DNA from: Trueperaceae bacterium
GTDB lineage: Bacteria; Deinococcota; Deinococci; Deinococcales; Trueperaceae
DNA length: 19,807 nt
Direction: 5' to 3'
Assembly: GCA_040905465.1 (NCBI GenBank)
Contig: JBBDRK010000016.1
Location: 2,934 to 22,740, forward strand
Under the pieces are notes generated by a model. The model was given only the letters and a program-made list of their open reading frames with translations, was not told the origin of the DNA and ran no database searches. Below, in pieces: positions 938 to 19,105 of this stretch; positions within the stretch are counted from its first letter, which is position 1, and every line of letters starts with the position of its first letter. A program made the translations under genes and the position numbers.

Positions 938-2605
938 GTGCTTCAGGCCGAGCGAGAAAACGAAATACTCACAGCGGTGAACGAGACCGGCTCGGCCTCG
1001 GTGCGCTCCCTGGCCCAGCGGTTTCGGGTAACGGAAGCGACGGTGCGACGCGACCTGCAACGCCTCGAAGACCGGCGGCAATTGCGCCGCATTCATGGTG
1101 GAGCCCTCCGTCTTTCGCCGGACGGCCCGCCTACGATAGGCGCTACCGCTGAGGATCTGCTGGCGCGACCGCAGGACACGCCAGACGGTCTGATCGTGGC
1201 CCCGATCGAGAACACCGCCGCGCGGGCACTGCGGCAGATGGCGCTGCGGCAAGGGATCCCCCTGCTCGCCGAGTCGGCGCCTCAAAGCGGAGCCGTCTAC
1301 CTGGGCCCCGACAACTTCGCTGCCGCGCTGGCGCTGAGCCGCTGGGTTACGGCCGAGATCCGCCGGCGGAAACTCACGCCCACGATTCTCTGCGTTTCTC
1401 ACGATGAACTCGCCAACGCCGCTGCCAGGCGGGCGGGATTGCTGCAAGGCCTGCGCGAAGCGTTCGGCGAGCAGGCGGAGATCGTTACCGTCGACGGAGG
1501 CGGGTTGCTGGATCAGGCCAACCAGGTCGCCCAAGCTGCCCTGCGGGTACAGCCGGCTATCAACGTCATCCTGGGCGTGAACGATGACTCGGTACTGGGA
1601 GCGTTGCACGCCTGCGCCGAGCTGGGACGCGAGACTGGCGAGACGCTGGTCGCCGGCGTCGGCGGGGAGGGCCCAACGCTTTTCGGGGCCATGAGGCGAG
1701 GCGCTGTACACGCCTGCGTGAGCCTGCTCCCCAAGACGGTCGGAGCCACGGCGATCGACTCGCTGGTGCGTTCCTGGCACGGCGAGGAGCTGGGCGCGCA
1801 GATAATCACCCCTTGGTGCCTTTACGTCGCCGCGGAGCTGCCGGCCGGCGAAGGCGCTCCGGTCGGGCCGCCCCTCGAGCCCCTGCCTGAGAACGTCGCA
1901 AGGCACGCGTCGGGTAAGCACGTCGAGTTCATCGTCCAGTTCCGCACCCACGAGTGGTACCAGGAGGTGGCCAAGGCCATGCGCGAACGCGCCCAGGCGT
2001 ACGGCGCAACCTTCACGGCCCATACCGTGGGCGAAGGTTTGGAACGCGAAGTGAGGGAACTGCGCCAGCTTATCGGCAAGGAGGCGGCGGCATATGTGAG
2101 GAGCGGTGAGAGCCTGTTTCTGGACGGTGGCCAAGCCAGCTGCTACGCTGCTCGTTTTCTCGCCGGTAAGCGCACCAGCGTCACCACCCACTCGCTGGCC
2201 GTCTTCAACCTGCTGCACAACCTCCCCGAGATCCAGTTGCGCCTCACCGGAGGCGACTACCATCGCGAACAAAACCTGCTGCACGGCCAAGGAGCTGTGC
2301 AGGCTGTCGCCGGCGTGCGGGTCGACAAACTCTTGCTGTCGGTCGACGGTGCCAGCGAGCGGTTCGGGCTGTCCTCGGCCAGCGAGCACGAACTCGAGGT
2401 GCTGCGCGCCATGGTGCGTTCGGCCCGCGAGGTCGTGGTTCTGGCGGTCCACACCGCCTTCGGCGTGGACGCCAACTTCCACATCGCCGGCCTCGGCTCC
2501 GCCACCACCGTGATTACCGACTCCGGGCTTTCGCCGGAGACGAGGCTCGAGCTGTCCCGCCGCGGGATACGCGTGATCATCGCCTCCCAGGAGATCGCCC
2601 CGTGA
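938..2605 (+). CDS. DeoR/GlpR-family transcriptional regulator with inserted type I periplasmic-binding-protein (RbsB/LacI-like) domain, 555 aa
   Basis: Start reassigned to GTG 938 (GGGGTGGA SD upstream). N-terminal DeoR HTH: ERENEIL...SVRSLAQRFRVTEATVRRDLQRLE...LRRIHGGA. Central RbsB-like motifs: DGLIVAP, GIPLL, LGPDNF, ILGVNDDSVLGA. C-terminal DeoR sensor domain: AAAYVRSGESLFLDGG, VTTHSL, LTGG, VDKLLLSVDG, VITDSG. Confidence 0.9.
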   Translation: MLQAERENEILTAVNETGSASVRSLAQRFRVTEATVRRDLQRLEDRRQLRRIHGGALRLSPDGPPTIGATAEDLLARPQDTPDGLIVAPIENTAARALRQMALRQGIPLLAESAPQSGAVYLGPDNFAAALALSRWVTAEIRRRKLTPTILCVSHDELANAAARRAGLLQGLREAFGEQAEIVTVDGGGLLDQANQVAQAALRVQPAINVILGVNDDSVLGALHACAELGRETGETLVAGVGGEGPTLFGAMRRGAVHACVSLLPKTVGATAIDSLVRSWHGEELGAQIITPWCLYVAAELPAGEGAPVGPPLEPLPENVARHASGKHVEFIVQFRTHEWYQEVAKAMRERAQAYGATFTAHTVGEGLEREVRELRQLIGKEAAAYVRSGESLFLDGGQASCYAARFLAGKRTSVTTHSLAVFNLLHNLPEIQLRLTGGDYHREQNLLHGQGAVQAVAGVRVDKLLLSVDGASERFGLSSASEHELEVLRAMVRSAREVVVLAVHTAFGVDANFHIAGLGSATTVITDSGLSPETRLELSRRGIRVIIASQEIAP

Positions 2606-3819
2606 ATCTCCGCGGGCTCACCTGGGACCACCCGCGAGGCTACCAGCCACTCGAGGCGGCGTCCGCGCGATTCGGCGAGCTGCACGGCGTTGAGATCGGC
2701 TGGGCGCGTCGCTCGCTCAAGGAGTTCGGTGACACTCCCATCGACACACTCGCGGGCGACTTCGACTTGCTGGTCATCGACCATCCCCACGTGGGCATTG
2801 CCGCCCAGTGCGACTGCCTGGTGCCGCTCGACAGCCTGCTCGACCAAGCGACCCTCGCCACGCTGTCCGCCGAGAGTGCCGGGCCCAGTTTCGACAGCTA
2901 CCGCTATGGCGCTCGGCAGTGGGCGCTGGCGGTGGACGCGTCCATGCAGACCAGTTGCTTCCGGCCGGGGTTGCTGCCGGTGCAGCCGCCCCGGGACTGG
3001 CCGGCGGTACTCGACCTGGCGGCGGTGCTGCGTCGGCGCGGCCGTTGGATGGCGGTGCCGCTGGTTCCGACCGACGCGGTGTGCTGCTTCCTCACGCTCT
3101 GCGCCGGGGCGGGCGGCGGCCTGCGGGAAGACGCAGACTTCGTTGCCCCCCGGGTGGGGCTACATGCGCTCAGGCTTCTGCGTACCTTGGCCCTGGCGGC
3201 GCACCCTGCCAGCCTCAGCTGGAACCCGATCGAGCTGTACGAGGCGATGAGCGGGAGCGACGAGATAGCCTACTGCCCCATCGGGTTCTGCTACTCCAAC
3301 TACGCCAGAAACGACTACCGCTCCCGACGGCTCGAGTTCGCCGACCTTCCGGGCGGGCGAGGCAGCCTGCTGGGCGGGGCGGGGATCGCCGTGAGCAAAT
3401 CGTGCCGTGAGCCGGGAGTGGCAGCCGCGTTCGCCGCCTGGCTGTGCAGCGCCGAACAGCAGCGTGGTCTCTATGTGGACGCCGCTGGCCAGCCGGCCAG
3501 TCGCTCCGCCTGGCTGGACGAGCGGGCCAACTCTCTCACCAACGGTTTCTTCAGTGGCACGTTCGCCACCTTGCGGCACGCCTATGTGCGCCCTCGCGAC
3601 CACGGTTTCGTGGCGTTTCAGGAGTATGCGGGAAGGCGGATCCACGACTTCCTGACTACTGCAGCCGAGGGTAACGCGACCGCCGACGCCACGGCCGAGC
3701 CCGCTGCCGACCCCGCTGCCGTCGCCCGCGGCGAGTCCGACGCCGAGTCCGACGCCGCTGCCTGCTTCGCCGACCTGGCGGAAGCCTTCCGCGACAGGAG
3801 GGTGTCGCGGTCATGGTGA
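2602..3819 (+). CDS. Family-1 solute-binding-protein-fold protein lacking a signal peptide (TWDHPRG type)
   Basis: GTGA overlap with the regulator stop. Begins MNLRGLTWDHPRG with no hydrophobic signal. SBP-like motifs DLLVIDHP, QWALAVDA, LLGGAGIAVS, AAAFAAWL, VRPR. Confidence 0.8.
   Translation: MNLRGLTWDHPRGYQPLEAASARFGELHGVEIGWARRSLKEFGDTPIDTLAGDFDLLVIDHPHVGIAAQCDCLVPLDSLLDQATLATLSAESAGPSFDSYRYGARQWALAVDASMQTSCFRPGLLPVQPPRDWPAVLDLAAVLRRRGRWMAVPLVPTDAVCCFLTLCAGAGGGLREDADFVAPRVGLHALRLLRTLALAAHPASLSWNPIELYEAMSGSDEIAYCPIGFCYSNYARNDYRSRRLEFADLPGGRGSLLGGAGIAVSKSCREPGVAAAFAAWLCSAEQQRGLYVDAAGQPASRSAWLDERANSLTNGFFSGTFATLRHAYVRPRDHGFVAFQEYAGRRIHDFLTTAAEGNATADATAEPAADPAAVARGESDAESDAAACFADLAEAFRDRRVSRSW
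3700..3755 (+). repeat. Short in-frame tandem duplications (12-bp period) in the 3' end of the TWDHPRG gene
   Basis: CCCGCTGCCG at 3700 and 3712; CGAGTCCGACGC twice at 3732-3755. Together these encode PAADPAA...ESDAESDA. Confidence 0.6.
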
Positions 3820-4676
3820 TCCCGCTCTCCAGCGTAGCGGTACTCGTCGACGGACTCGATCATCCCGAGGGAGTGGCTCGGGGCTCCGACGGGTTCGTGT
3901 ATGCCGGGGGCGAGGCCGGCCAGGTCTACCGGGTTTCTCTGCTGGGCGAAGCCTCGCAGTTCGCCAGCACCGGCGGCTTCTCCCTGGGGATGTGTCTCGA
4001 CGCCCACCACAACGTCTACGTCTGCGATCAGGCCAGGCGCGCGGTGGTCAGGGTCAGCCCCAGCGGGCAGGTCTCTGCCTATTCCACCGGTGACGAACGT
4101 CGGCGGTTGCGCGTGCCCAATTACCCAGTTTTCGATGGGGACGGCAATCTCTACGTCAGTGATTCCGGAGGCTGGAAGGGCAGCGACGGCACCATCCAGT
4201 TGCTTCGTCCCGATGGCAGCGCCGAGGTCGCCACCGCCACCGACCTGGCCTTTCCCAACGGCCTCGCCCTCGATCCCGAGGGCCGTTACCTGTACGCCGT
4301 CCTCTCCAACGAGTCGCGGGTGGTGCGCTTCGCGCGCCGGGAGCAGGCCAGGCTCGGCCCGGCCGAACATTTCGTTACCCTGCCCCGGACCGTGCCCGAC
4401 GGCCTGGCGTTCGACGCGCAAGGCGGGCTGCTCATCTCCTGCTACGCCCCCGACGCAATCTACCGCTTTAGCTCGCCCGGCCGGCTCGAGCTGCTGATCG
4501 AAGACTGGGAGCGAACCACGCTCGCCAGCCCTACCAACATCGCCTTCGCCGGAGCCGACATGACGACCCTGGTGATTGCCAGCCTGGGACGCTGGCACCT
4601 GGCCACCTGCCAGGTCGACGTTCCCGGCATGCCTCTGAACTACCCCGCAGTGCAAGCGGGAGGAGCCTCACTATGA
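3813..4676 (+). CDS. SMP-30/gluconolactonase/LRE family protein (beta-propeller lactonase)
   Basis: Metal-ligand motifs HPEG, PNY...DGNLYVSDS, FPNGLAL, PDGLAFD and PTNIAF. AGGAGG SD upstream. No signal peptide. Confidence 0.9.
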   Translation: MVIPLSSVAVLVDGLDHPEGVARGSDGFVYAGGEAGQVYRVSLLGEASQFASTGGFSLGMCLDAHHNVYVCDQARRAVVRVSPSGQVSAYSTGDERRRLRVPNYPVFDGDGNLYVSDSGGWKGSDGTIQLLRPDGSAEVATATDLAFPNGLALDPEGRYLYAVLSNESRVVRFARREQARLGPAEHFVTLPRTVPDGLAFDAQGGLLISCYAPDAIYRFSSPGRLELLIEDWERTTLASPTNIAFAGADMTTLVIASLGRWHLATCQVDVPGMPLNYPAVQAGGASL

Positions 4677-5857
4677 CCGGAGCCCTGGAGGGCGTACGAG
4701 TTCTCGATTTCACGCAGATGATGCTGGGACCCTGGGGGACGCAGTTCCTGGGCGACTTCGGGGCCGACGTCATCAAGATAGAGCGGCCAGGCAAGGGCGA
4801 ATGGGAGCGTGGCCTGGCAGCGATGGGAAAGCTGCTTGGTGGCGACAGCCCCTTCTTCATAGCCATGAACCGCAACAAGCGCAGCCTGACTCTCAATCTG
4901 AAGGACCCGCGCGCGGTCGAGATAGTGCTGGAGCTGGCCAAAGAGGCCGACCTGGTGGTCGAGAACTACCGGCCCGGAGTGATGGACCGCCTGGGCATCG
5001 GTTACCAGTCCCTGCGTGAAGTCAACCCGTCGATCGTCTACGTGGCCGGCAGCGGTTACGGCCCCGACGGACCCTATGTGAAGCGGCCCGGCCAGGACCT
5101 GCTCATCCAGTCGTTGTCCGGCCTGGCGGCGAACAGCGGTCGCGGAGATGATCTACCCACGGCGACGGCTACCTCGTTCGTGGACGCCAGCACCGCACTG
5201 ATGCTGGCTCTGTCGGCCACCGTGGGCCTCTTCCACCGGGAGCGCACCGGACAGGGGCAACGCATAGACGTGAACCTGTTCAGCACCGCCGTGGCCATGC
5301 AGTGCCAGGAGCTGACGGCGTTCATGAACCTCGAGGAGCGCTGGGAGCGCAGCAACGAGGGAATCAGCTCACCATGGCTCGGCGCTCCGTTCGGCATCTA
5401 CCGCACGACCGACGGCACGATGGCAATCAGCATGAATCCCCTTACTCAGCTCGGTGAGGTGATAGGCGACCCCGGTTTGGCGGAGCTCGACACCCCGGAG
5501 CTCGCCTACCAGCATCGCGACGAGGTCAAGCGGCGGGTGCAGGAGCGGGTGAAGGCCATGCCCACCGCCCACTGGCTCGAGCTGATGGAGGCGCGCGACA
5601 TGTGGTGCGCCCCGGTGCAGGACTTCGAAGCACTCGTGAACGACCCTCAGGTGAGGCACAACGAGTTGATCCGCACCGTCGAGCACCCGGTAGCAGGCGA
5701 GGTGAAGGTGGTCGGAATCCCGGTCCGCTTCAGCGAAACGCCCGGCGCCATCAAGCGGGGTCCACCGGCGGTCGGCCAGCACAGCACCGAGATCCTGGAC
5801 GAGCTCGGCTACTCAGCCACCGGCATCGATCAACTGCGGGCCGAGGGAGTGATCTGA
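4673..5857 (+). CDS. CaiB/BaiF family (class III) CoA-transferase
   Basis: LEGVRVLDF, GP...LGDFGADVIKIERP, NRNKRSLTLNLK, ADLVVENYRPG, SGYGPDGPY...PGQD. The Asp at the usual catalytic position is kept (SFVDAST). ATGA overlap with the upstream gene. Confidence 0.93.
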   Translation: MTGALEGVRVLDFTQMMLGPWGTQFLGDFGADVIKIERPGKGEWERGLAAMGKLLGGDSPFFIAMNRNKRSLTLNLKDPRAVEIVLELAKEADLVVENYRPGVMDRLGIGYQSLREVNPSIVYVAGSGYGPDGPYVKRPGQDLLIQSLSGLAANSGRGDDLPTATATSFVDASTALMLALSATVGLFHRERTGQGQRIDVNLFSTAVAMQCQELTAFMNLEERWERSNEGISSPWLGAPFGIYRTTDGTMAISMNPLTQLGEVIGDPGLAELDTPELAYQHRDEVKRRVQERVKAMPTAHWLELMEARDMWCAPVQDFEALVNDPQVRHNELIRTVEHPVAGEVKVVGIPVRFSETPGAIKRGPPAVGQHSTEILDELGYSATGIDQLRAEGVI

Positions 5858-5858
5858 G

Positions 5859-6638
5859 GTGGCGCTGGTAGAGCTGACGCGACCTCGTGAGGACGTGGCC
5901 TTGCTCACCGTCAATCGGCCCGACAAACTCAACGCCTTGAACACGCCGCTGTTGGGCGAGTTCGCGGATCACCTGGTCACAGTCGAGGACGACCCGGGGG
6001 TGCGGACGGTCATCATCACCGGAGCGGGCGACAAGGCGTTCGTGGCGGGCGCGGATATCGGAGAGTACGCCGAGGGCGACTCCCAGGCGTTCACGGCCTT
6101 TCAGTTGCGGGGGCGCGCCTTCAACGACCGGCTCGAGCGCTTCCCGAAAGCCACCATCGCCGCGGTCAACGGCTTTGCCCTCGGCGGAGGGTTCGAAATC
6201 GCCCTGTGCTGCGACATCATCGTGGCGACTCCGTCGGCGCGTTTCGGCCTGCCCGAGGGCCTGCTCGGGTTGTCGCCCGGCGGTGGCGGCAGCCAACGGC
6301 TTCTGCGCGCGGCCGGGCCCTTCGTGGCCGCCGACGTGCTCCTCTCCGCCCGGAGGCTCAGCGGCGAGCGCGCCCACGCCCTGGGGTTGGTGGCGGACGT
6401 GGTAGAGCCGGAGCAGCTGCTCAACAGTGCCTTGGAGAAGGCCGGCTACATCGCCAGGGTGGCACCGCTGGCGGCCCGTGAGATGAAGCGGTTGCTGCGC
6501 GAGGGTGCCGACGCCGCCCTGCCGACGGCGCTCTCGCTGGAGCAGGAAGTGCTCTTTCGGCTCTACTCGACTGCCGATGCCGGCGAGGGCATCCGGGCTT
6601 TTCTGGCCAAGCGGCCCGCGACTTTCGAGGGCAGGTAA
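5859..6638 (+). CDS. Enoyl-CoA hydratase/isomerase (crotonase) family protein
   Basis: NRPDKLNALN, AFVAGADI (oxyanion hole), AAVNGFALGGGFE and FGLPE. Both catalytic Glu of true hydratases are present. Confidence 0.93.
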   Translation: MALVELTRPREDVALLTVNRPDKLNALNTPLLGEFADHLVTVEDDPGVRTVIITGAGDKAFVAGADIGEYAEGDSQAFTAFQLRGRAFNDRLERFPKATIAAVNGFALGGGFEIALCCDIIVATPSARFGLPEGLLGLSPGGGGSQRLLRAAGPFVAADVLLSARRLSGERAHALGLVADVVEPEQLLNSALEKAGYIARVAPLAAREMKRLLREGADAALPTALSLEQEVLFRLYSTADAGEGIRAFLAKRPATFEGR

Positions 6639-7411
6639 TGGCTGGCCGCTTCCCGGACAGGGTTGCAGTGGTCACCGGCGCTGCCGACGGTATCGGGCGG
6701 GTTACCGCCAGGCAACTGGCGCGCGAACAGGCGATCGTGGTGATAGCCGACATCGACGAGGAAGCCGGCCGGCGGGCCGCGGCGGAACTTCGCGAGCAGG
6801 GCGGCGACGCCCACTTCGTGCCTGTGAACGTGGCGGACAGCGCCAGCACACAGAGGCTGTTCGGAGAAGTGCTCGAACGCTGGGAACGGGTGGATGTGCT
6901 GGTGAACAACGCAGCGATAGCCGTCCCCGGGAGTGTGCTGAGTATCTCCGAGGAAGAGTGGCGGCTGGTCCTGGACACCAACCTAACCGGCGCCTGGCGG
7001 GCGATGCGGCTGGCGCTGCCCCACATGATCGAGCGCGGGCGCGGAGCGGTAGTCAACGTCAGCTCGATGCAGGGCCAGCTCGGCTTCAAGGGCTGGTCTG
7101 CCTACGCCGCGGCCAAGGGCGGCCTGGAGGCGCTCACCCGGCAGGCGGCGGTCGAGTACGCGCCGCACGGCGTCCGGGTGAACGCGGTGGCGCCCGGAAC
7201 GATCATGACACCGATGAACGAGCGGATATTCCGGGAGTCTGACGACCCCGAGGAGCTCATATCGCGCTGGAATGGCCTGCACGCGCTGGGGCGTTTCGGC
7301 CGGCCCGAGGAGGTCGCGGAAGCGATCCTGTTCCTGGCCTGCGACGGTGCCTCGTTCATCACCGGCGAGACGCTGCGGGTTGAGGGTGGCATGGCGGTCA
7401 AGGGTGGCTGA
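6638..7411 (+). CDS. Classical SDR family oxidoreductase (probably NAD-preferring)
   Basis: TGAADGIG, acidic ADID after beta2, VLVNNA, NVSS, catalytic YAAAK, VRVNAVAPG and ASFITG. TAATG coupling to the upstream gene. Confidence 0.93.
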   Translation: MAGRFPDRVAVVTGAADGIGRVTARQLAREQAIVVIADIDEEAGRRAAAELREQGGDAHFVPVNVADSASTQRLFGEVLERWERVDVLVNNAAIAVPGSVLSISEEEWRLVLDTNLTGAWRAMRLALPHMIERGRGAVVNVSSMQGQLGFKGWSAYAAAKGGLEALTRQAAVEYAPHGVRVNAVAPGTIMTPMNERIFRESDDPEELISRWNGLHALGRFGRPEEVAEAILFLACDGASFITGETLRVEGGMAVKGG

Positions 7412-12849: not shown

Positions 12850-14559
12850 CTACTCCTTGAGGAACGCCTTCACCAGCTTGGCCTGGCCGGCGCCCTCGTT
12901 CAGCAGTCGGTAGCTGCCGGCAGCGGCCGGAACGATGAACGTCTCGGCAAAATGGAAGCGCTGTTCGCGGCCGCCGCAACGCAGGAGGATCGGGCCGCCC
13001 TCCACCAGGTTCAGCACGTGCGGCCCGCCTCGGGTCGTCGCCTCGACCTGCCGGGCGAACTCCAGGCGATGTACGTCGTAGAAGTGCTCGGCGTGGGTGG
13101 GCAGGTGGACGGTTCGCCAACCGTCACCTTGTTCCAGCACGCGCGGCGTGGCGATGAGCTCCTCGTCTACACGCCCTCCCGCCCGCCCGAAATCGAGGTT
13201 CTCGAAGGCGCGCTCTATGTTGAGCGGCCGGGGCTGCCCGTCGAGCCCGAGCCGCTGCCAGTCGTACAGCTTGAAGGTGAAGATGTAGGGCGTGGCGCTG
13301 ATCTCGAGCACCATGTTGCCGGCTCCCGAGCAGTGGATGGTGCGATTAGGGATGAGGAACAGATCGTGCTTCTCGGCTGGCAACGCGCGCACGAAGCGTC
13401 CCACGTCCAGCGCCTGCCCGCTCCGCGCGCTCTCCTCGAGCGCCGCACGGAACTCGGCCGGCTCGATTCCCTCCCGGAAGCCCAGGTAGACCTGCGCGCT
13501 TGGCGCAAGATCGACGATGTAGTAGGTCTCGTCCTGAGTGAACGACTCACCGAACTGGCGGCGAATGTACTCACTTCCGGGGTGGCACTGCAGCGACAGA
13601 TTGCCACCCTCGACCGTGTCGAGGTAGTCGAAGCGGATAGGGAACTCGTCGCCGAAACGCTCCCGGTGCCTGCCGAGCAGCGCCTCGCCGGCATGGAACA
13701 TCAGGAAGTCGAAGGAGACCTCCAGCCGCTGCCCGCCGCTTTCCAGAGCGATACTGTTCTCCGGCGTTATCAGCTCGAACGACCATGCGTAGTTGGGCAC
13801 GTCCTGCGGCAGCTCCGGAATCAGCCGCTTGAGCCACTGGCCGCCCCACGGGCCCGGCTCGAACCACGGCACCGCCCGCACGAAACTGGTTCCCATGCCG
13901 TCCAGCGCGCGGCGTAGATCGTCTCCCGTCACGAAGGAAGGTTCGGCGGTCTGCCGGCCATCGACAAGCAGGTCGATTCGCGAGGTGAGTTCCGCCTTGT
14001 GCCGGTTCAGCGCTACCCAGTCAACGAAGTAGAAGCGCTTGTACATCTCCTTGGGCGGCGCCGGCTCGTCACTACCGAGGTTGCCTATCTCGCCCGAGCG
14101 TGAACGGTACTGGACGACGTTCTTGGATACGTCCACGTAGGCCAGAAAGCCGGCCCATTTGGCAAGAGCCGCGCCGCTGCCGTAAATGATCGAGACTTGC
14201 GCCTGCGGATCCGGTTGCAGGGCAGCGAGGGCGCTCGTGTCGAAGAACTCCCGTAGCCGGCCAGTGAAGCGCGTCCCGAACAGCGGATCGTTGCCGCCCA
14301 GGAAGGGCGCTACCAACTCCTCGATCTGCCGGGCGGGCCGGAGGGCGTCGGCGACCGGCTGCCAGTGGACGTTCACGCCGGAACGTTCGAAGGCTGCCGC
14401 CAGTGCGCCCCTCAACTCCTCCCACAACACTCCCCCGTAGCCGTCTAGGATGACGACGCGCTGTCGCGCCAGGGTGGCGGCCAGGGCTTCGGCGCCGGTG
14501 CCGATGCGTCCCGGCTCGAGTCCGAAGGCGGGTTGCGGGTCGTAGCCGCGGCGAGTCAC
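12850..14559 (-). CDS. Long class I mannose-6-phosphate isomerase-like cupin protein with extra N-terminal domain
   Basis: PWGGQWL, FPIRFDYLDT, NLSLQCHP, QDETYY, HCSG and VLEIS (Q/H/E/H metal ligands of type I PMI). At 569 aa it has a ~220-aa N-terminal extension containing ILDGYGG. Confidence 0.8.
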   Translation of the reverse strand: MTRRGYDPQPAFGLEPGRIGTGAEALAATLARQRVVILDGYGGVLWEELRGALAAAFERSGVNVHWQPVADALRPARQIEELVAPFLGGNDPLFGTRFTGRLREFFDTSALAALQPDPQAQVSIIYGSGAALAKWAGFLAYVDVSKNVVQYRSRSGEIGNLGSDEPAPPKEMYKRFYFVDWVALNRHKAELTSRIDLLVDGRQTAEPSFVTGDDLRRALDGMGTSFVRAVPWFEPGPWGGQWLKRLIPELPQDVPNYAWSFELITPENSIALESGGQRLEVSFDFLMFHAGEALLGRHRERFGDEFPIRFDYLDTVEGGNLSLQCHPGSEYIRRQFGESFTQDETYYIVDLAPSAQVYLGFREGIEPAEFRAALEESARSGQALDVGRFVRALPAEKHDLFLIPNRTIHCSGAGNMVLEISATPYIFTFKLYDWQRLGLDGQPRPLNIERAFENLDFGRAGGRVDEELIATPRVLEQGDGWRTVHLPTHAEHFYDVHRLEFARQVEATTRGGPHVLNLVEGGPILLRCGGREQRFHFAETFIVPAAAGSYRLLNEGAGQAKLVKAFLKE

Positions 14560-15491
14560 GAGTTGGTGCCCGGCTTACCCTCGACAAGCAGTTGGCTGGC
14601 AGCGCCCTGCAGTGCGGCGGCGTCCAGTCTCATCGCGGTAACCAAATCCGGTGTCGGAGATACTTCCGCGTTCTGCACGAGCGCCTGCCTGGCGGCGGGA
14701 ACGAAGAGATCGGCACTGCGGCTTATCTGGCCGCCCAGCACGACCCGCTGCGCCCGGAAACCGGCGAACACCGGTGCCAGCGCCGCTGCCAGTGCCTCTC
14801 CGAAGCGCCTGTAGGTTTCCGCTGCTCGCTCGTCGCCGGAGCGGGCCAGGTCCGCCAGCTCGGCGCCGTCGATCTCGTCCTCGATCCGACCAGAGCCCGC
14901 TACCTCCCGCCACAACCGCCACAACCCGCGTTGCGAGAGCCACTCGTCCACTACCGCACCACGATAGGGCAGCGGATAGACGTAGCCGTTCTCGGGAACG
15001 CCTTCACCCTCGCTCACCAGCGCGCCATCCACCGCGAACGCCGATCCGCAGCCAGTCCCCAGCGTGAGGAACACGGCGCGTTCCATGCCGCGCGCAGCGC
15101 CGTAGTGCAGTTCCCCCAGCGCGAAGGCCGCGGCGTCGTTCACCCACCTCCAGGGAAGGGAGCTCAGTTGGGGCAGGCGCCGGCGCAACAACGAGTCGAG
15201 CTCGAGCCCATAGAGTGCCTCGAACTTCCCCAGGCCATTCATCCGGCTTATCGCCCGCCGGTAGTCGAACGGGCCGGGAATGGCCACCGTGACCCCGATG
15301 ACGGTGCTCTCGCCTGCCCGGCCATGCGCGGCCTCTATCGCCTCGGTTAGCTCGGCCAGGATCTCCTGGGCACCAGCTGTGCTGTCGATAGTTCGTCTGG
15401 CCAGGTCACCGTCGACGCTGCCATCGCTCTGTATCAGTCCGCTCTTGATCGCGCTTCCGCCTATATCGAAACTGATCACTACGCGGCTCAC
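14556..15491 (-). CDS. ROK family sugar kinase
   Basis: FDIGGSAIK (ATP-binding), AIPGPFD, VNDAAAFALGE, LTLGTGCGSAF and VVLGGQIS. No HTH. GTGA overlap with the PMI-like gene. Confidence 0.9.
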   Translation of the reverse strand: MSRVVISFDIGGSAIKSGLIQSDGSVDGDLARRTIDSTAGAQEILAELTEAIEAAHGRAGESTVIGVTVAIPGPFDYRRAISRMNGLGKFEALYGLELDSLLRRRLPQLSSLPWRWVNDAAAFALGELHYGAARGMERAVFLTLGTGCGSAFAVDGALVSEGEGVPENGYVYPLPYRGAVVDEWLSQRGLWRLWREVAGSGRIEDEIDGAELADLARSGDERAAETYRRFGEALAAALAPVFAGFRAQRVVLGGQISRSADLFVPAARQALVQNAEVSPTPDLVTAMRLDAAALQGAASQLLVEGKPGTNS

Positions 15492-15505: not shown

Positions 15506-17596
15506 TCAGAAGTCCTCCAGCGCCAGGTCGAGCTGTTCCTGGAGCTCGAGCCGCGACCCGCGCAACTCTGCTATCTCCGTTTCCACCGCGTCGAGGGTGT
15601 CTTCCTGCGTCTCGAGGTCCGCAAGATAGCGCCGGTAGAGCGAAGAGTTCCTGTCTAGCGCCGCCATATTCTGGCGGACGCGGTTCTGATCACGGTGTAT
15701 CGCGTCGAGGCTCGACTGCTTCTCGGAGATCGACCGTTCCAGGTCTGTCAGTCGACGCTTAAGCTCGAGGACTCGCGCCAGCCTCTCGCGGTCCTCTTGG
15801 GAGAGCTCGACGTTCTCCAGATAGAAGGCGATCTGTTCGCCGGTGACGTTGGTTGCCGCGATTCTGCGGCTGTCGACGCGCTCCATCACCACTTCGAGGG
15901 TGCACGGCGCGCCCGCCTGGCACGACCGGTGGACGGGCACCACCGGGTCGCTGGTTTCGTCGCTCTCCTGTCGACCGGTCGGCGCCGCTTCCGTACCGGC
16001 GTTCCCGCCTGCCAGCAACATCCCGAAACGGTACGATCCGGCCGTCTCGGCCGGCGCGAGATCTGGTGAGACGACCTCGAAACCGCTTCTCTTCGGGTGC
16101 TCGATGATGACCAGCCTGCCCTGCTCTCCGCGCGCGGTAGCACGGTACTCGCGGGTAACGCGCTGCCGCACGCTCGTCTCGAACACGCCGTTGCGGATCG
16201 AAACTGCGGTTACCCGTTCCGGTTCGCTCGAGCTGGTCGTCTCGAACTCGACGCCCAGGTCGACGGCGTAGGTCAGTATTCGGGAGTCGCCCGGTACGAT
16301 GTCCGCGATCCGCGAGTTACCGGCGAAGCCCCCGGCGTCGAAGACAGTCACCGGTCCGGCGGCCAGGTGCAGGCCGGTGTCGTTGACGAGCCGCACTCCG
16401 TGCAGAGGATTGGCGGCGAGGATCGAGGAGTCGTAGATCGATAGGCGCTGAGCCTCCACGCGCTGCTGGATTATCGGAATCATCGCAGACTCGTAGCGGG
16501 CCACCGTGACCGGCTCCAGGACCCGGTACTCGAAGCTTGCGCCGGTCTGGCCGCCTTCGGCCATGGCTGCCACTCCGGCGTCGGCGAACTGCAGGGCCTC
16601 GCGCATCGCCTGGCCCTGCTCCTGCGCACGCTCCCTCGCGGCCATACGAGCGGGCTCCGGGGGCGCCGCGTCGGCGGCGTAGGCCGGCGGGACGATTCCC
16701 GGGGTCGTGCTGGCCTCCACCCGCGGCCGCTCGACGTACACCGGTGCGTAGAGGCTGCTGATGAACGAAATCGGTTGCCCGGCCACGAACGAAACCGTTA
16801 TATCGCTGAGGTCGAGGCTGGTCGGATTGTCGAAGATGGCCCAGCCCTGTAGGTCCGCCTCTCCCTCGTCCCCGACCAGCAGCCGGTAACTCGTCTTCCA
16901 CACCGGCACCTCCCGGATGTAGCCGACACTCACCCGCCTGCTGCCACTTCCCGAGAAGCGCAGCCGCACGTTTCCCTCGTCCTCTCCGCGGTAGCGGGCG
17001 AGCGCGGCCAGGGCCGATTCCAGCTCCTGTTGTAGCTCCGGCCGGGCGAAGCGCACTCGCCGCACCTCGGCCAGTGACACCCGCTGCAGGCCCGTGGCCA
17101 TGGCGAGGGTTAGATAGGTCTTGGGCTCCTCCTCGGGTACCTGGACCCGCTCGAGGTTGACTATAGTCCCCTCCAGCGGCTCCGTGGCCGTTACCAGCAC
17201 GGCTTCGCCCCTCGCCTGGCTCAGCAGTTCCGCCAGCGTCGGGTCGTTGGTGAGGTCCAGGGAATAGCTGGCCAGTACCCGGCCCAGCGGATCGCGCGCC
17301 GGGTAACGAACCGGTTCAATGGTGCCTCCACCGAAGTCCTGGAGGACCAGGCTGGCCAGCAGGTCGTCCATCTGTTCGCCCGCAACGGGCAACTCCAGTT
17401 CGGCCGTGCCGTCGACCGTCCCGGCGTGCTCGAAGTAGCCGATGCCGCTCGTGAAGAGAACGACGCGGGTCACGGGCAGGCTCGCCGAATCAACCGTGCT
17501 GCCGGCGCCCGGCTCGTCCTGGGCAAAGACGGAGGCGCTGAGGCAGGCAAGCAGCAGGGCAGATACGGGGGTGGCGATCATCTTGGCTGTTTTCAT
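15506..17596 (-). CDS. Secreted DUF4139/DUF4140-like protein with C-terminal coiled coil
   Basis: Signal peptide MKTAKMIATPVSALLLACLSASVFA-Q. Motifs LPVTRVVLFTSGIGYFEH, MDDLLASL, PVWKTSYRL, LQGWAIFDN, SAMIPI and LAAGPVTVF. C-terminal heptads with DQNRVRQNM. Start placed at ATG 17596. Confidence 0.78.
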   Translation of the reverse strand: MKTAKMIATPVSALLLACLSASVFAQDEPGAGSTVDSASLPVTRVVLFTSGIGYFEHAGTVDGTAELELPVAGEQMDDLLASLVLQDFGGGTIEPVRYPARDPLGRVLASYSLDLTNDPTLAELLSQARGEAVLVTATEPLEGTIVNLERVQVPEEEPKTYLTLAMATGLQRVSLAEVRRVRFARPELQQELESALAALARYRGEDEGNVRLRFSGSGSRRVSVGYIREVPVWKTSYRLLVGDEGEADLQGWAIFDNPTSLDLSDITVSFVAGQPISFISSLYAPVYVERPRVEASTTPGIVPPAYAADAAPPEPARMAARERAQEQGQAMREALQFADAGVAAMAEGGQTGASFEYRVLEPVTVARYESAMIPIIQQRVEAQRLSIYDSSILAANPLHGVRLVNDTGLHLAAGPVTVFDAGGFAGNSRIADIVPGDSRILTYAVDLGVEFETTSSSEPERVTAVSIRNGVFETSVRQRVTREYRATARGEQGRLVIIEHPKRSGFEVVSPDLAPAETAGSYRFGMLLAGGNAGTEAAPTGRQESDETSDPVVPVHRSCQAGAPCTLEVVMERVDSRRIAATNVTGEQIAFYLENVELSQEDRERLARVLELKRRLTDLERSISEKQSSLDAIHRDQNRVRQNMAALDRNSSLYRRYLADLETQEDTLDAVETEIAELRGSRLELQEQLDLALEDF

Positions 17597-17603
17597 TGAG
17601 CAG

Positions 17604-17609
17604 ACTTTA
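17604..17609 (-). promoter_or_regulatory. Putative -10 box (TAAAGT) for a leaderless DUF4139 transcript
   Basis: TANNNT lies 7 nt upstream of ATG 17596, and there is no SD sequence. Confidence 0.5.
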
Positions 17610-17666
17610 CCGCAACCGCTCGAACGGGTCACAGCGCTGCCGTGAGCGGCCCGGCGAAAGTGCGCA

Positions 17667-17672
17667 TAGACT
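17667..17672 (+). promoter_or_regulatory. Putative -10 box (TAGACT) for a leaderless membrane-protein transcript
   Basis: TANNNT lies 5 nt upstream of ATG 17678, and there is no SD sequence. Confidence 0.5.
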
Positions 17673-17677
17673 ACGTA

Positions 17678-19105
17678 ATGCCGAACTCGCGTCGAAGACC
17701 TGTGGATCTTCCTGCCATCCTCGCCGGCCTCTATGGCCTGCTGGTGGTGGGATCGCTGGTGCGCTGGGCGGGTCTCCCCAGCCAGCGTCTGCCGTTGTTC
17801 CTGGTAGGAGTCGCGAGCATATTCGCGATGCTGGCGGCCCTGGGATTTCTCGCCTGGTACCTGCTGTTACGACGCCGCAGCACACCCGAAGCCGCAGCTC
17901 ATCCGCTGCTCGGCGTCGCCCAACGGCAGGGGCTCGCGGCCGTGCTGACCATAAGCGGCATCATGATCGTGATCGGCGCGTTCTGGGACGAGGTATGGCA
18001 CCGTAGTTACGGCGTCCCGTTCGGGGAAGACCTGCTCTGGCGCCCTCACCTGCTCCTCTACATCGGCATGCTGCTGGTGAGCCTGGCGGCAGCTTACGGC
18101 CTGGTGGTCTTGTGGCGCGGCGGTCGGGGCAACCTGCGCCAGCGCTTCCGCGCCGATCCCCATCTCGGCTGGTTGGTTCTTCTCGGAGCCTTCTTCGTCT
18201 ACGCGATTCCGGCCGACCCGGCCTGGCACCAGCTGTATGGAGCGGACATCACCGCCTGGAGCGTGCCCCACCTGATCCTGATGTCGGCTTTCGCGGCGAT
18301 CATGGTGCTGGCGGTTGCGCTCCAGTACTCCCTGGAAGTTGAGCGGCCGTGGCGAGGCGTTCACCGAATCGGTCCGCTCGACTTACTGGTGGGAGTAGCG
18401 ACGGCGTTCGCTCTGAAACTCGGTCTGCAACTGCTGACCACCGAGTGGGACGGCATCACCGCCATAGTCCAGGAAAGCGCGAATCCGTTCTGGCAGCGAC
18501 CCGAGTGGCTGCTGCCGGTGCTGATCGTCGGACTGGCGGGCTTCTTCGGTACCCTCGCCGTTCACGCGTCACGCCTGATCGGGATGGCCACGCTGATTGG
18601 ACTGGCGGCCCTGACTGTGCGCTGGCTACTGGTTGGCTTCTTCGGTCGACCGGGGATAACGGCTGACGCCTGGCTGTTGGCCCTGCCGCCGCTGATCGCG
18701 CTCGACCTGTGGTTCGCAGCCAAGTCGTTCACCGCTGGGCGGCTTGCGGCTCGGCGGCGATCGTTGGGCACTCAGCCCGTGGTTTTCGGCTCGGCGGTAG
18801 CGGCCACACTCGGCATGGCGCTGGGCTCGCTGCCGCTGCTGGACATGCTCTACCTATATCCGCGGGTCACGGTGGCCACCATGCTGCCGATGCTGGCGTT
18901 CGGCTTTCTCACCGCACTATGGTCGTGCTGGCTCGGTACACGGGTGGGCGCGGCGCTGGGTCCCGGCGCTGCCGTCGCGCCTTTACGGCAGGCAGCGGCG
19001 CAGCGCCAGGAGGCCGTCCGGGTGGCGTCGGGGGCCGGCATCGCCGTGCTGGTGACGGCCGGCTTTATCGGCTGGTTCATAGCTTCCGCCAGCCCGCCGG
19101 TCTGA
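17678..19105 (+). CDS. Uncharacterised multi-pass membrane protein with two DxxWH-x13/15-H motifs (putative metal-binding)
   Basis: Many hydrophobic segments. Motifs WDEVWHRSYGVPFGEDLLWRPH and ADPAWHQLYGADITAWSVPH. ATG 17678 preferred over GTG 17642. Confidence 0.8.
   Translation: MPNSRRRPVDLPAILAGLYGLLVVGSLVRWAGLPSQRLPLFLVGVASIFAMLAALGFLAWYLLLRRRSTPEAAAHPLLGVAQRQGLAAVLTISGIMIVIGAFWDEVWHRSYGVPFGEDLLWRPHLLLYIGMLLVSLAAAYGLVVLWRGGRGNLRQRFRADPHLGWLVLLGAFFVYAIPADPAWHQLYGADITAWSVPHLILMSAFAAIMVLAVALQYSLEVERPWRGVHRIGPLDLLVGVATAFALKLGLQLLTTEWDGITAIVQESANPFWQRPEWLLPVLIVGLAGFFGTLAVHASRLIGMATLIGLAALTVRWLLVGFFGRPGITADAWLLALPPLIALDLWFAAKSFTAGRLAARRRSLGTQPVVFGSAVAATLGMALGSLPLLDMLYLYPRVTVATMLPMLAFGFLTALWSCWLGTRVGAALGPGAAVAPLRQAAAQRQEAVRVASGAGIAVLVTAGFIGWFIASASPPV

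Follow-up and report, generated by a model that had tools for sequence, protein, structure and literature searches.

A DeoR-type regulator with a circularly permuted type I binding domain in a Trueperaceae bacterium

Ordinary DeoR/GlpR repressors, such as DeoR and UlaR of E. coli and LacR of L. lactis, are about 250 aa long and join a DeoR-type helix-turn-helix (HTH_DeoR) to a DeoRC domain through a short linker. A gene in a 19,807-nucleotide stretch of Trueperaceae DNA (hereafter the window) encodes a protein, P0001, that has both domains in common with these repressors, but carries a roughly 300-residue binding domain where they have the linker. This raises the question of how a two-lobed binding domain can be fitted into such a position and what it does there. 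The reading that we favour, at a probability of about 0.75, is that P0001 is a one-component DeoR regulator in which the linker is replaced by a complete, permuted RbsB-like domain, and which represses transcription and senses an unphosphorylated ligand.

The regulator gene and its surroundings

The gene is a stop-free open reading frame with a product of 555 aa, compared with 246–285 aa for ordinary DeoR matches, which comprise the HTH and DeoRC stretches only. GTG at 938 is taken as the start because homologues start at the same residue. The features of the gene are as follows.

938–2605, + strand: regulator gene P0001; GTG start, 3' stop overlapping the start of the next gene
953–1117, + strand: DeoR-type winged HTH, residues 6–60 (HTH_DeoR, PF08220, 54.8 bits against a cut-off of 21; block mean pLDDT 87–96)
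1118–1171, + strand: variable, low-confidence tether, residues 61–78, including a remnant of helix alpha2 (residues 71–75)
1172–1828, + strand: body of the type I binding domain, residues 79–297, from strand beta3 to the canonical C-terminus (Peripla_BP_4 at residues 78–283, 78.6 bits against a cut-off of 35.1, covering profile positions 55–257 of 258 only)
1829–1912, + strand: Pro-rich linker, residues 298–325, from the old C-terminus to the old N-terminus, an extra lobe-to-lobe crossover
1913–2026, + strand: relocated beta1-alpha1-beta2, residues 326–363, carrying the invariant H338-E-W340-Y341 ligand loop
2027–2584, + strand: DeoR C-terminal domain, residues 364–549 (PF00455; DeoRC at residues 374–529, 107.6 bits against a cut-off of 31.8, profile positions 4–160 of 160), the first helix of which (364–386) continues directly from beta2

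No LacI HTH family is found among the 23 Pfam matches of P0001 at E ≤ 1. The full-length structural model has a mean pLDDT of 91.5 and a pTM of 0.78, and the insert modelled alone (residues 66–372) reaches a pTM of 0.90 and a mean pLDDT of 92.6. The motif PDGLIVAP (residues 81–88) falls on a modelled strand at 84–87, the body closes with modelled strands at 288–290 and 294–297, and residues 326–363 are modelled as a strand (328–333), a helix (339–354) and a second strand (358–363), with mean pLDDT of 86–97 per 10-residue block. The tether, over which any closure of the binding domain would have to reach the HTH, varies in sequence and has low model confidence (pLDDT <50 at residues 62–72; columns without consensus among the aligned homologues). 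The reading frame, the domains, PDGLIVAP, the linker and the segment at 1913–2026 all lie where an earlier note on this DNA had placed them. The same layout is found in 86 aligned homologues at 30–46% identity, and 3 of the 25 invariant columns of this alignment (H338, W340 and Y341) fall in the segment. Because of this recurrence and these invariant columns, the layout is not due to chance.

Upstream and downstream of the gene lie a promoter-like site, a candidate operator and five genes, assigned by Pfam, with homologues that adjoin the regulator in part of 80 related loci.

867–895, + strand: sigma-70-like promoter, a consensus match only (TTGACC at 867–872, 17-nt spacer, AATAAT at 890–895)
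886–899, + strand: candidate operator CGATAATAATCGAT, two CGAT cores 10 bp apart, overlapping the -10 hexamer
2602–3819, + strand: SBP_bac_8-like protein without signal peptide (19 of 80 loci)
3813–4676, + strand: SGL lactonase (34 of 80)
4673–5857, + strand: family III CoA-transferase (26 of 80)
5859–6638, + strand: enoyl-CoA hydratase (43 of 80)
6638–7411, + strand: SDR (57 of 80)

The promoter-like site matches the consensus at 10 of 12 positions and is the sole one in 700–2700, where 0.1 would be expected from shuffles. In 38 of 62 regions from related loci, tandem YGATCR boxes 9–10 bp apart precede the regulator, and TGATCAA occurs in 25 of 62 related upstream regions vs 0 of 61 control regions. 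The site in the window is degenerate, with CGAT instead of TGATCA, and YGAT-N6-YGAT is not enriched by count in the window (4 found where 1.45 are expected; 13 of 200 shuffles give 4 or more). Phased short upstream repeats would presumably fit DeoR-type operators, and the pattern tentatively suggests 886–899 as the operator of the regulator. The downstream genes are co-directional, with ends that overlap or abut, and the same gene order is seen in Deinococcota, Labrys and Vibrio loci, with regulators of the family adjoining ABC-transporter, CoA-transferase, hydratase and SDR operons. The genes at 2602–7411 are thus probably an operon regulated by P0001.

Probable ligand sensing

Two domains of P0001 could in principle bind an effector. 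The DeoRC fold is intact, with model residues 371–548 aligning to E. coli DeoR (7l6l_A, 74–252) over 178 of 179 residues (Z 26.6, rmsd 1.7). According to the available text of PMC10991401, an Asp and a Lys contact the phospho-effectors of ordinary DeoRs (D206/K209 in UlaR, D210/K213 in LacR). The position of UlaR D206 holds Asp in 48 of 48 ordinary DeoRs and 85 of 86 family members, and that of K209 (position 507) holds Lys in 46 of 48 ordinary DeoRs vs none of the 86 family members. P0001 has V504 and A507 at the two positions, is the only family member with V504, and also lacks the conserved Asn418 of DeoRC. A T-T pair, present in 39 and 47 of 48 ordinary DeoRs, is found in 26 and 32 of the 86. 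Because the effector Lys is missing throughout the family, and the Asp also in P0001, the effector is likely not a phosphosugar bound in DeoRC.

The earlier note had considered a two-input regulator, in which the permuted domain senses a free ligand and DeoRC a second metabolite. DeoRC is complete and well conserved, its fold is retained, and near-invariant, family-specific residues (R461, F476, S479, H505 and, in 85 of 86, D504) suggest that it could still bind something. Against this stand the loss of the LacR/UlaR phospho-effector Lys in all members, the relaxed T-T pair and, in P0001, the additional loss of Asp and Asn418. A second input has therefore become less likely than the note implied, and we consider it unlikely while granting it a small but real share.

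In the binding domain, the ligand pocket is strictly conserved. RbsB ligand contacts include N13, F15, F16, D89, R141, N190 and D215 in the available text of PMC3676853. These map to H338, W340, Y341, E112, R164, N215 and E244, each invariant in 86 of 86 family members, so that 7 of the 9 contact positions are invariant, three of them in the relocated unit and four (E112, R164, N215 and E244) in the body. The invariant contact residues are also identical in the sister periplasmic transport proteins, and this is the pattern expected of a working pocket. It makes quite improbable a third possibility, that the binding domain senses nothing and is a structural spacer or oligomerisation module, with DeoRC or a partner protein doing the regulation, even though P0001 has no known ligand and the regulators of the LacI type do dimerise through a core with the binding-protein fold.

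At 6 of the 9 contacts the residue type is not that of RbsB, so ribose itself is unlikely as the ligand. For the same reason a ligand assignment by homology was dropped, even though the solved protein nearest to the sister group is the ribose-binding protein of T. maritima (E 2.3e-22). The free sugar or sugar acid suggested in the earlier note is plausible from the pocket residues. Most likely P0001 is a repressor in which the permuted domain serves as the sensor for an unphosphorylated ligand.

Order of the binding domain

The binding domain does not follow the canonical order: its Peripla_BP_4 match opens at profile position 55, and the N-terminal unit comes after the body, at residues 326–363. 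The family profile matches four canonical-order binding proteins in swapped order. An HMM of the segment alone (49 positions) matches P0182, P0206, P0175 and P0172 with 35.0, 30.1, 26.7 and 26.0 bits, exactly at the start of their Pfam Peripla_BP_4 match, against a background of 8.9 bits for the best non-self match (six-frame genome, 4.88 M residues) and 10.2 bits for a reversed decoy. An HE[WF]YQ loop is common to the segment and the N-termini of the four canonical-order periplasmic relatives. Compared segment by segment, residues 326–363 are thus homologous to the N-terminus of canonical-order relatives. A Pfam scan restricted to the segment (76 and 107 aa) was too insensitive and returned no match to a type I binding protein; the family-specific HMMs resolved the point. 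As tblastn against the source genome returned the self match only, and the segment HMM the gene itself and none of the genome's other binding proteins, there is no close canonical paralogue in that genome. Split forms were not seen either, with no short (<305 aa) relatives of residues 78–283 at E ≤ 1e-5 among 7168 candidates.

The structural matches, together with the Pfam score, identify a two-lobed alpha/beta fold. The 50 listed have Z 17.6–24.6 with 209–254 residues aligned, except for the single-lobe fragment 7pu4_B, which has 157 aligned. Model residues 79–299 align to E. coli RbsB (1drk) 55–271 with Z 21.0, and most canonical binding-protein chains align to the model only as far as about residues 300–311. 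Among the matches listed, the only solved chain that aligns through the segment is TpMglB-2 (6bgc_A), with 254 of 269 residues of model range 104–372 (Z 22.1–22.2, rmsd 2.8–2.9, aligned identity 11%), and therefore at least 23 of the 38 segment residues are superposed. In TpMglB-2 the C-terminal strands are relocated canonical N-terminal strands, as described in the available text of PMC4990184. The modelled segment sits where the relocated strands sit in this natural permutant, its packing being judged from aligned ranges and residue counts, not residue-level contacts.

Without a permutation, the binding domain would be N-terminally truncated and residues 326–363 would belong to a normal DeoR linker or extend DeoRC. 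The segment alone indeed has no Pfam match and abuts DeoRC, with modelled beta2 continuing straight into the first DeoRC helix. However, ordinary DeoRs match the family profile at HTH and DeoRC only, never at positions about 316–384, DeoRC lacks nothing when the segment is left out (178 of 179 residues aligned to 7l6l_A), and the segment is homologous to canonical N-termini and superposed with the permutant TpMglB-2, which leaves this explanation hardly any weight. Neither outcome that the earlier note had named as fatal, a segment lying outside the N-lobe or one that is ordinary DeoR linker, was found. Sequence and structure agree that the type I binding domain lying between the DeoR HTH and DeoRC is circularly permuted, and by homology and model the segment is the relocated N-terminus of that domain.

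The chain of P0001 comes into the binding domain through the end of helix alpha2 and strand beta3, runs to the canonical C-terminus, returns across the Pro-rich linker, forms beta1-alpha1-beta2 and passes from beta2 straight into the first DeoRC helix. Because of this path, both connections to the rest of the protein are neighbours on the N-lobe, where beta2 and alpha2 used to join. In the proposed working of P0001, DeoRC would be mainly an oligomerisation scaffold. P0001 would act as repressor both at its own promoter and on the transporter, lactonase, CoA-transferase, hydratase and SDR operon downstream, contacting DNA at phased YGAT(C) repeats overlapping the -10 box. When the permuted domain closes on an unphosphorylated sugar-like ligand, probably the one that the sister periplasmic binding proteins recognise, the HTH geometry would change and the DNA would be released. 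A more far-reaching proposal, which we regard as evenly balanced, is that P0001 is the founding example of an undescribed regulator class: a natural allosteric domain-insertion switch in which a transporter-derived sugar-binding domain, permuted to bring its new ends together at helix alpha2, was spliced into the DeoR linker, phospho-sensing gave way to free-substrate sensing, DeoRC was demoted to a scaffold, and hinge closure would be passed on mechanically via the continuous beta2-to-DeoRC helix.

Spread, known relatives and origin

The idea that the gene is an error of assembly or annotation, or a chance fusion confined to this genome, deserves next to no credence: although the gene was not found among 30 related genomes and the source genome is a draft of 81 contigs, the reading frame is uninterrupted, and 38 clusters (at 50% identity) and 166 stretches of genomic DNA share the architecture. 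The 166 matches come from Chloroflexota, Deinococcota, Alphaproteobacteria and Vibrio, and the colinear architecture is also present in complete genomes of cultured strains. For the GC-rich loci, taking the longest ORF as the gene was unreliable and was given up. P0001 is a divergent member, with at most 46% identity to any homologue. Family members are already in databases under generic names, and no description of a DeoR regulator with a permuted binding domain was found in the literature searched. This agrees with the earlier note, which knew of no characterised example, although natural permuted binding proteins are known (TpMglB-2; available text of PMC4990184). The regulator class is apparently an undescribed yet widespread natural design.

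TpMglB-2 (Tp0684) is, like P0001, a natural N-lobe permutation of a type I sugar-binding protein. The available text of PMC4990184 describes a 'fourth hinge and extended structure', analogous to the Pro-rich linker of P0001, and names such permutants 'Type Ic / Cluster Bc'; the hallmark of 'Type Ic', N-lobe strands moved C-terminal with an extra crossover, is seen in the model of P0001. By the same text TpMglB-2 relocates three strands, whereas P0001 relocates two, with beta3 staying N-terminal. TpMglB-2 is a periplasmic ABC-transporter lipoprotein, whereas the domain of P0001 sits inside a regulator. It is not among the 49 PDB sequence matches at E ≤ 1, and the two permutations are probably independent events.

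LacI/GalR repressors (RbsR, LacI) likewise use a cytoplasmic type I fold as sugar sensor, with the DNA-binding domain on the N-lobe and a sensor related to the binding protein of the pathway's own transporter. The structural matches listed include RbsR and a LacI ancestor (Z 17.6–17.7). Their binding domain is C-terminal and follows a LacI HTH, whereas that of P0001 is internal, permuted and combined with a DeoR winged helix, and oligomerisation would probably proceed via DeoRC, unlike the binding-protein core of LacI/GalR. Natural permuted binding-protein folds have so far been described, in the literature searched, only for periplasmic transport proteins (TpMglB-2), and repressor sensors of this fold are known from proteins with LacI-type heads, where they keep the canonical order. 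The conserved family unites permutation and repressor sensor, an evolutionary permute-then-insert that resembles how engineers build switches.

Engineered biosensors make use of domain insertion and circular permutation of periplasmic binding proteins. They share the principle that a permuted domain with adjacent new termini is spliced in and hinge closure transmitted, but they are man-made and the reporter is usually put into the binding protein, whereas in P0001 the binding protein lies inside a transcription factor. If the more far-reaching proposal above is true, the family would be a ready-made natural blueprint for binding-protein-based transcriptional biosensors. It is also a testable case of sensor replacement, given that the phospho-effector Lys is lost in every member examined, and since the cultured, non-pathogenic hosts Labrys and Kaistia carry it, with orthologues in Labrys okinawensis DSM 18385 and Kaistia granuli DSM 23481, ligand, operator and structure are directly testable. 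For the lactonase, CoA-transferase, hydratase and SDR operon, the ligand of the regulator would name the pathway substrate.

In the tree, the sister group of the family's binding domain is the transporter binding protein adjoining the regulator. The same three domains also occur in end-to-end fusions of 554–598 aa (P0149, P0153, P0160, P0163, P0167, P0174, P0212 and P0218), but in the order HTH-DeoRC-binding domain, with the binding domain complete and unpermuted, another pocket signature, no HE[WF]YQ loop, and the DeoRC Lys kept in 4 of 8. Their bodies nest weakly (89/62) within the permuted clade on a branch of length 1.66, a probable long-branch attraction; as pocket and loop differ, we rejected the idea that the permuted form arose from these fusions. 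The tandem two-domain protein P0225 was rejected as a duplication intermediate, its halves being near-identical and grouping with RbsB, not with the family. P0225 does show that binding-domain duplications occur.

Domain order and circular permutation of P0001

The regulator P0001 (555 aa) is read from an uninterrupted frame with a GGGGTGGA stretch 5' of its GTG start and a stop codon overlapping the first codon of the gene downstream, and its homologues start at the same residue in the alignment. Pfam divides the protein as follows.

938-2605, +: P0001 ORF, 555 codons
residues 6-60: HTH_DeoR
residues 78-283: Peripla_BP_4, only profile positions 55-257 of 258
residues 374-529: DeoRC, complete (profile 4-160 of 160)

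NCBIfam gives partial, sub-threshold matches to the DeoR-type equivalogs AgaR, SrlR and GlpR through the HTH and DeoRC, and also weak matches to RbsB-like binding proteins. The earlier note had placed a circularly permuted RbsB-like domain between HTH and sensor, with coordinates that proved correct throughout against the ORF, Pfam and the structure model. In that reading, residues 326-363 (the segment), which follow the binding-domain body and a Pro-rich linker, are the relocated N-terminal beta1-alpha1-beta2 unit.

The family profile was built from P0001 and 85 homologues taken from 91 matches, leaving out P0002 (same sequence as the query), P0042 (643 aa), P0073 and P0084 (both truncated), P0091 (without HTH) and P0092 (a 305-aa DeoR-like protein). 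It was searched against 1.84 billion representatives, and the 150 proteins listed were re-scored with the same profile. Four of these, P0172, P0175, P0182 and P0206 (335-383 aa), each carry a full Peripla_BP_4 in canonical order, and the source record of one calls it a ribose transport substrate-binding protein. The profile matches all four in two pieces with the order swapped, positions ~316-390 falling on the N-terminal region just before the body (177-190 bits). An HMM restricted to the 49 segment columns gives P0182 35.0, P0206 30.1, P0175 26.7 and P0172 26.0 bits, right at the start of the Pfam match, values also seen among distant true members of the family; the best background scores are 8.9 bits (best non-self, six-frame genome of 4.88 million residues) and 10.2 bits (reversed decoy). 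Family and canonical relatives also have a signature loop in common; of the four relatives, two have HEWYQ here and two have HEFYQ.

Structure points the same way. The full-length AlphaFold2 model, made with the 85-homologue alignment, has a mean pLDDT of 91.5 and a pTM of 0.78 and is unreliable only at residues 62-72 and the last three. The body ends with strands 288-290 and 294-297, followed by coil and a short helix (318-324); the segment forms strand 328-333, helix 339-354 and strand 358-363, and a long helix (364-386) leads into DeoRC. Modelled alone, the insert (residues 66-372) is one compact unit (pTM 0.90, pLDDT 92.6). DeoRC is complete without the segment, given that model residues 371-548 cover 178 of the 179 residues of E. 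coli DeoR 7l6l_A (Z 26.6, rmsd 1.7). For most canonical binding proteins the alignment starts at residue 79 and stops at about 300-311 (RbsB 1drk residues 55-271, C-terminus included, on 79-299), and their first ~54 residues are left without a partner in sequence order. One solved chain, Treponema pallidum MglB-2 (6bgc_A), aligns through the segment, chain residues 10-352 on model residues 104-372, with 254 residues, Z 22.1 and rmsd 2.9; because 254 of the 269 residues in range are aligned, at least 23 of the 38 segment residues are superposed, as known from aligned ranges and counts rather than residue pairs. A search with the isolated insert against 48,161 chains gave the same outcome (Z 22.2, rmsd 2.8), and among the 50 matches listed 6bgc_A alone extends to the end of the model. 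MglB-2 is described as a natural circular permutant in which the canonical strands EcMglB 3-9, 34-40 and 62-65 are found beyond an additional 'fourth hinge', at residues 300-307, 331-337 and 358-361 (PMC4990184).

Because the segment matches canonical N-termini and aligns with 6bgc_A, the alternatives that it is ordinary DeoR linker or does not pack in the N-lobe fall away, and the proposed circular permutation is borne out. Two independent lines, sequence comparison and predicted structure, show the permutation, and we put the probability of the architecture as described at about 0.95. No description of it was found in the literature searched outside subscription journals and supplements, and a term search of a review of solute-binding-protein signalling (PMC8050422) found no mention of DeoR.

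Spread and origin of the family

The segment lies after the body in 35 of the 38 full-length colinear members among the 150 best representatives and scores <10 bits in the other three. A scan of 185,579 species, one genome each, returned 166 relatives, of which the best 80 come from Chloroflexota, Deinococcota, Vibrio and many Alphaproteobacteria (Labrys, Kaistia, Mesorhizobium, Rhizobium, Bauldia). P0184 (585 aa) is family-like with HTH_DeoR and DeoRC, and its middle has no Pfam binding-domain match and <10 bits with the segment HMM; this insert is possibly degenerate or highly diverged.

A tree of 77 binding-domain bodies took every third family member, the full-length representatives and the four canonical relatives, together with both halves of P0225, eight end-to-end fusions, RbsB, one own-genome protein and one neighbour. 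In it the bodies of the regulators form a single clade (100/98), to which P0206 and the transporter binding protein encoded next to the regulator in locus L035 are sister (100/96). The end-to-end fusions (554-598 aa) have the order HTH-DeoRC-complete C-terminal Peripla_BP_4; unlike the permuted family they have a different pocket signature and lack the HE[WF]YQ loop, and so represent a second, independent fusion. Their nesting in the regulator clade is weak, on a branch 1.66 long, and unreliable. P0225, a metagenomic protein of 630 aa, carries a tandem pair of near-identical complete Peripla_BP_4 domains (branch lengths 0.035 and 0.017). Excision from a duplication of this type can give a circular permutant; in the tree P0225 falls with RbsB and outside the regulator family.

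Ligand pocket and DeoRC

The ribose contacts of E. coli RbsB (PMC3676853; sequence from the K-12 record) were mapped by aligning the pieces separately to P0001.

Ribose contacts of RbsB, P0001 counterparts and conservation in the family
N13: H338, 86/86, in segment
F15: W340, 86/86, in segment
F16: Y341, 86/86, in segment
D89: E112, 86/86
R90: S113, 81/86
R141: R164, 86/86
N190: N215, 86/86
D215: E244, 86/86
Q235: L263, 75/86

Seven of the nine positions are invariant, three of them inside the relocated segment, and the four canonical relatives match the family at eight of nine, except for Ile instead of Arg in P0175. Residue types differ from RbsB at six of the nine, which makes ribose an unlikely ligand. 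Among solved structures, T. maritima ribose-binding protein comes nearest to the sister group, with an E-value of only 2.3e-22.

DeoRC of the 86 members was compared with that of 48 ordinary DeoRs from the family-profile search. The structural core is retained. The T-T pair (39/48 and 47/48 in ordinary DeoRs) occurs in only 26/86 and 32/86, and Lys at the UlaR K209 position drops from 46/48 to 0/86 (V 57, L 15, A 8, I 3, others 3). Asp at the UlaR D206 position is kept in 85/86, the sole exception being P0001 itself (V504), which also has H instead of the conserved Asn418. Since inducer binding needs this Asp/Lys pair in LacR (D210/K213) and UlaR (D206/K209) (PMC10991401), canonical phospho-effector sensing has probably been lost. 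The family-specific near-invariant residues R461, F476, S479 and H505 leave room for another role of DeoRC. We consider it fairly likely that P0001 is a repressor that ligand binding to the permuted domain, as sensor, would release, with DeoRC acting as oligomerisation scaffold.

Candidate operators and gene neighbourhood

Upstream of the regulator, TGATCAA occurs in 25/62 loci versus 0/61 control regions inside the gene, and YGATCR boxes occur in 38/62, usually in tandem 9-10 bp apart; 14 loci have an additional copy abutting the start codon.

886-899: candidate operator CGATAATAATCGAT, overlapping the -10 hexamer of the only sigma-70-like promoter in 700-2700
1-702, -: divergent ORF upstream, running off the window edge
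2602-3819, +: SBP_bac_8-like protein, 405 aa, directly 3' of the regulator with stop/start overlap
3813-7411, +: lactonase, family III CoA-transferase, enoyl-CoA hydratase, SDR
12850-14559, -; 15506-17632, -; 17642-19105, +: long ORFs of 569, 708 and 487 aa

The spaced YGAT-N6-YGAT pattern shows no enrichment across the window (4 matches versus 1.45 expected). Its three further matches, at 15423-15478 and 15689-15702 (-), one of them TGATCAGTTTCGAT, surround the 5' end of a ROK-family gene (14556-15491, -) and could be a second operator or chance. The three long ORFs have no Pfam match at E <= 1e-5, and some may be spurious, the sequence being GC-rich. At its N-terminus the divergent ORF has a lipoprotein-like signal that ends in Cys; a long, probably coiled-coil region rich in Ala, Glu and Leu comes next. 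The ORF has no Pfam match and no homologue beside the regulator in 80 loci.

In those 80 loci, homologues of window genes beside the regulator are SDR (57), enoyl-CoA hydratase (43), SGL lactonase (34), family III CoA-transferase (26) and the SBP_bac_8-like protein (19). The last is without evident signal peptide in the window, and its homologue lies directly upstream of the CoA-transferase in Deinococcota MAG locus L037; a cytoplasmic binding-protein fold within a CoA-dependent catabolic operon is unusual. Among six loci annotated with Pfam for gene order, the Deinococcota MAG order is regulator, ABC binding protein, two permeases, (SBP_bac_8-like), CoA-transferase, hydratase and SDR; the Labrys and Vibrio loci are close variants, and in two Chloroflexota loci the transporter is instead of RbsB type. 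Lactonase, CoA-transferase, hydratase and SDR form a conserved module, seen also in L037, L046 and L092. The window has an SGL/SMP-30-type lactonase, L037 and L092 one of 7-bladed propeller type (PF10282), which suggests that the required lactone-opening step is met by non-orthologous replacement. A search of 30 relatives of the window's genome returned no copy of the P0001 gene, the sole match being DeoRC-only, and the window CoA-transferase is 77% identical to that of L037; together these fit horizontal acquisition of the operon.
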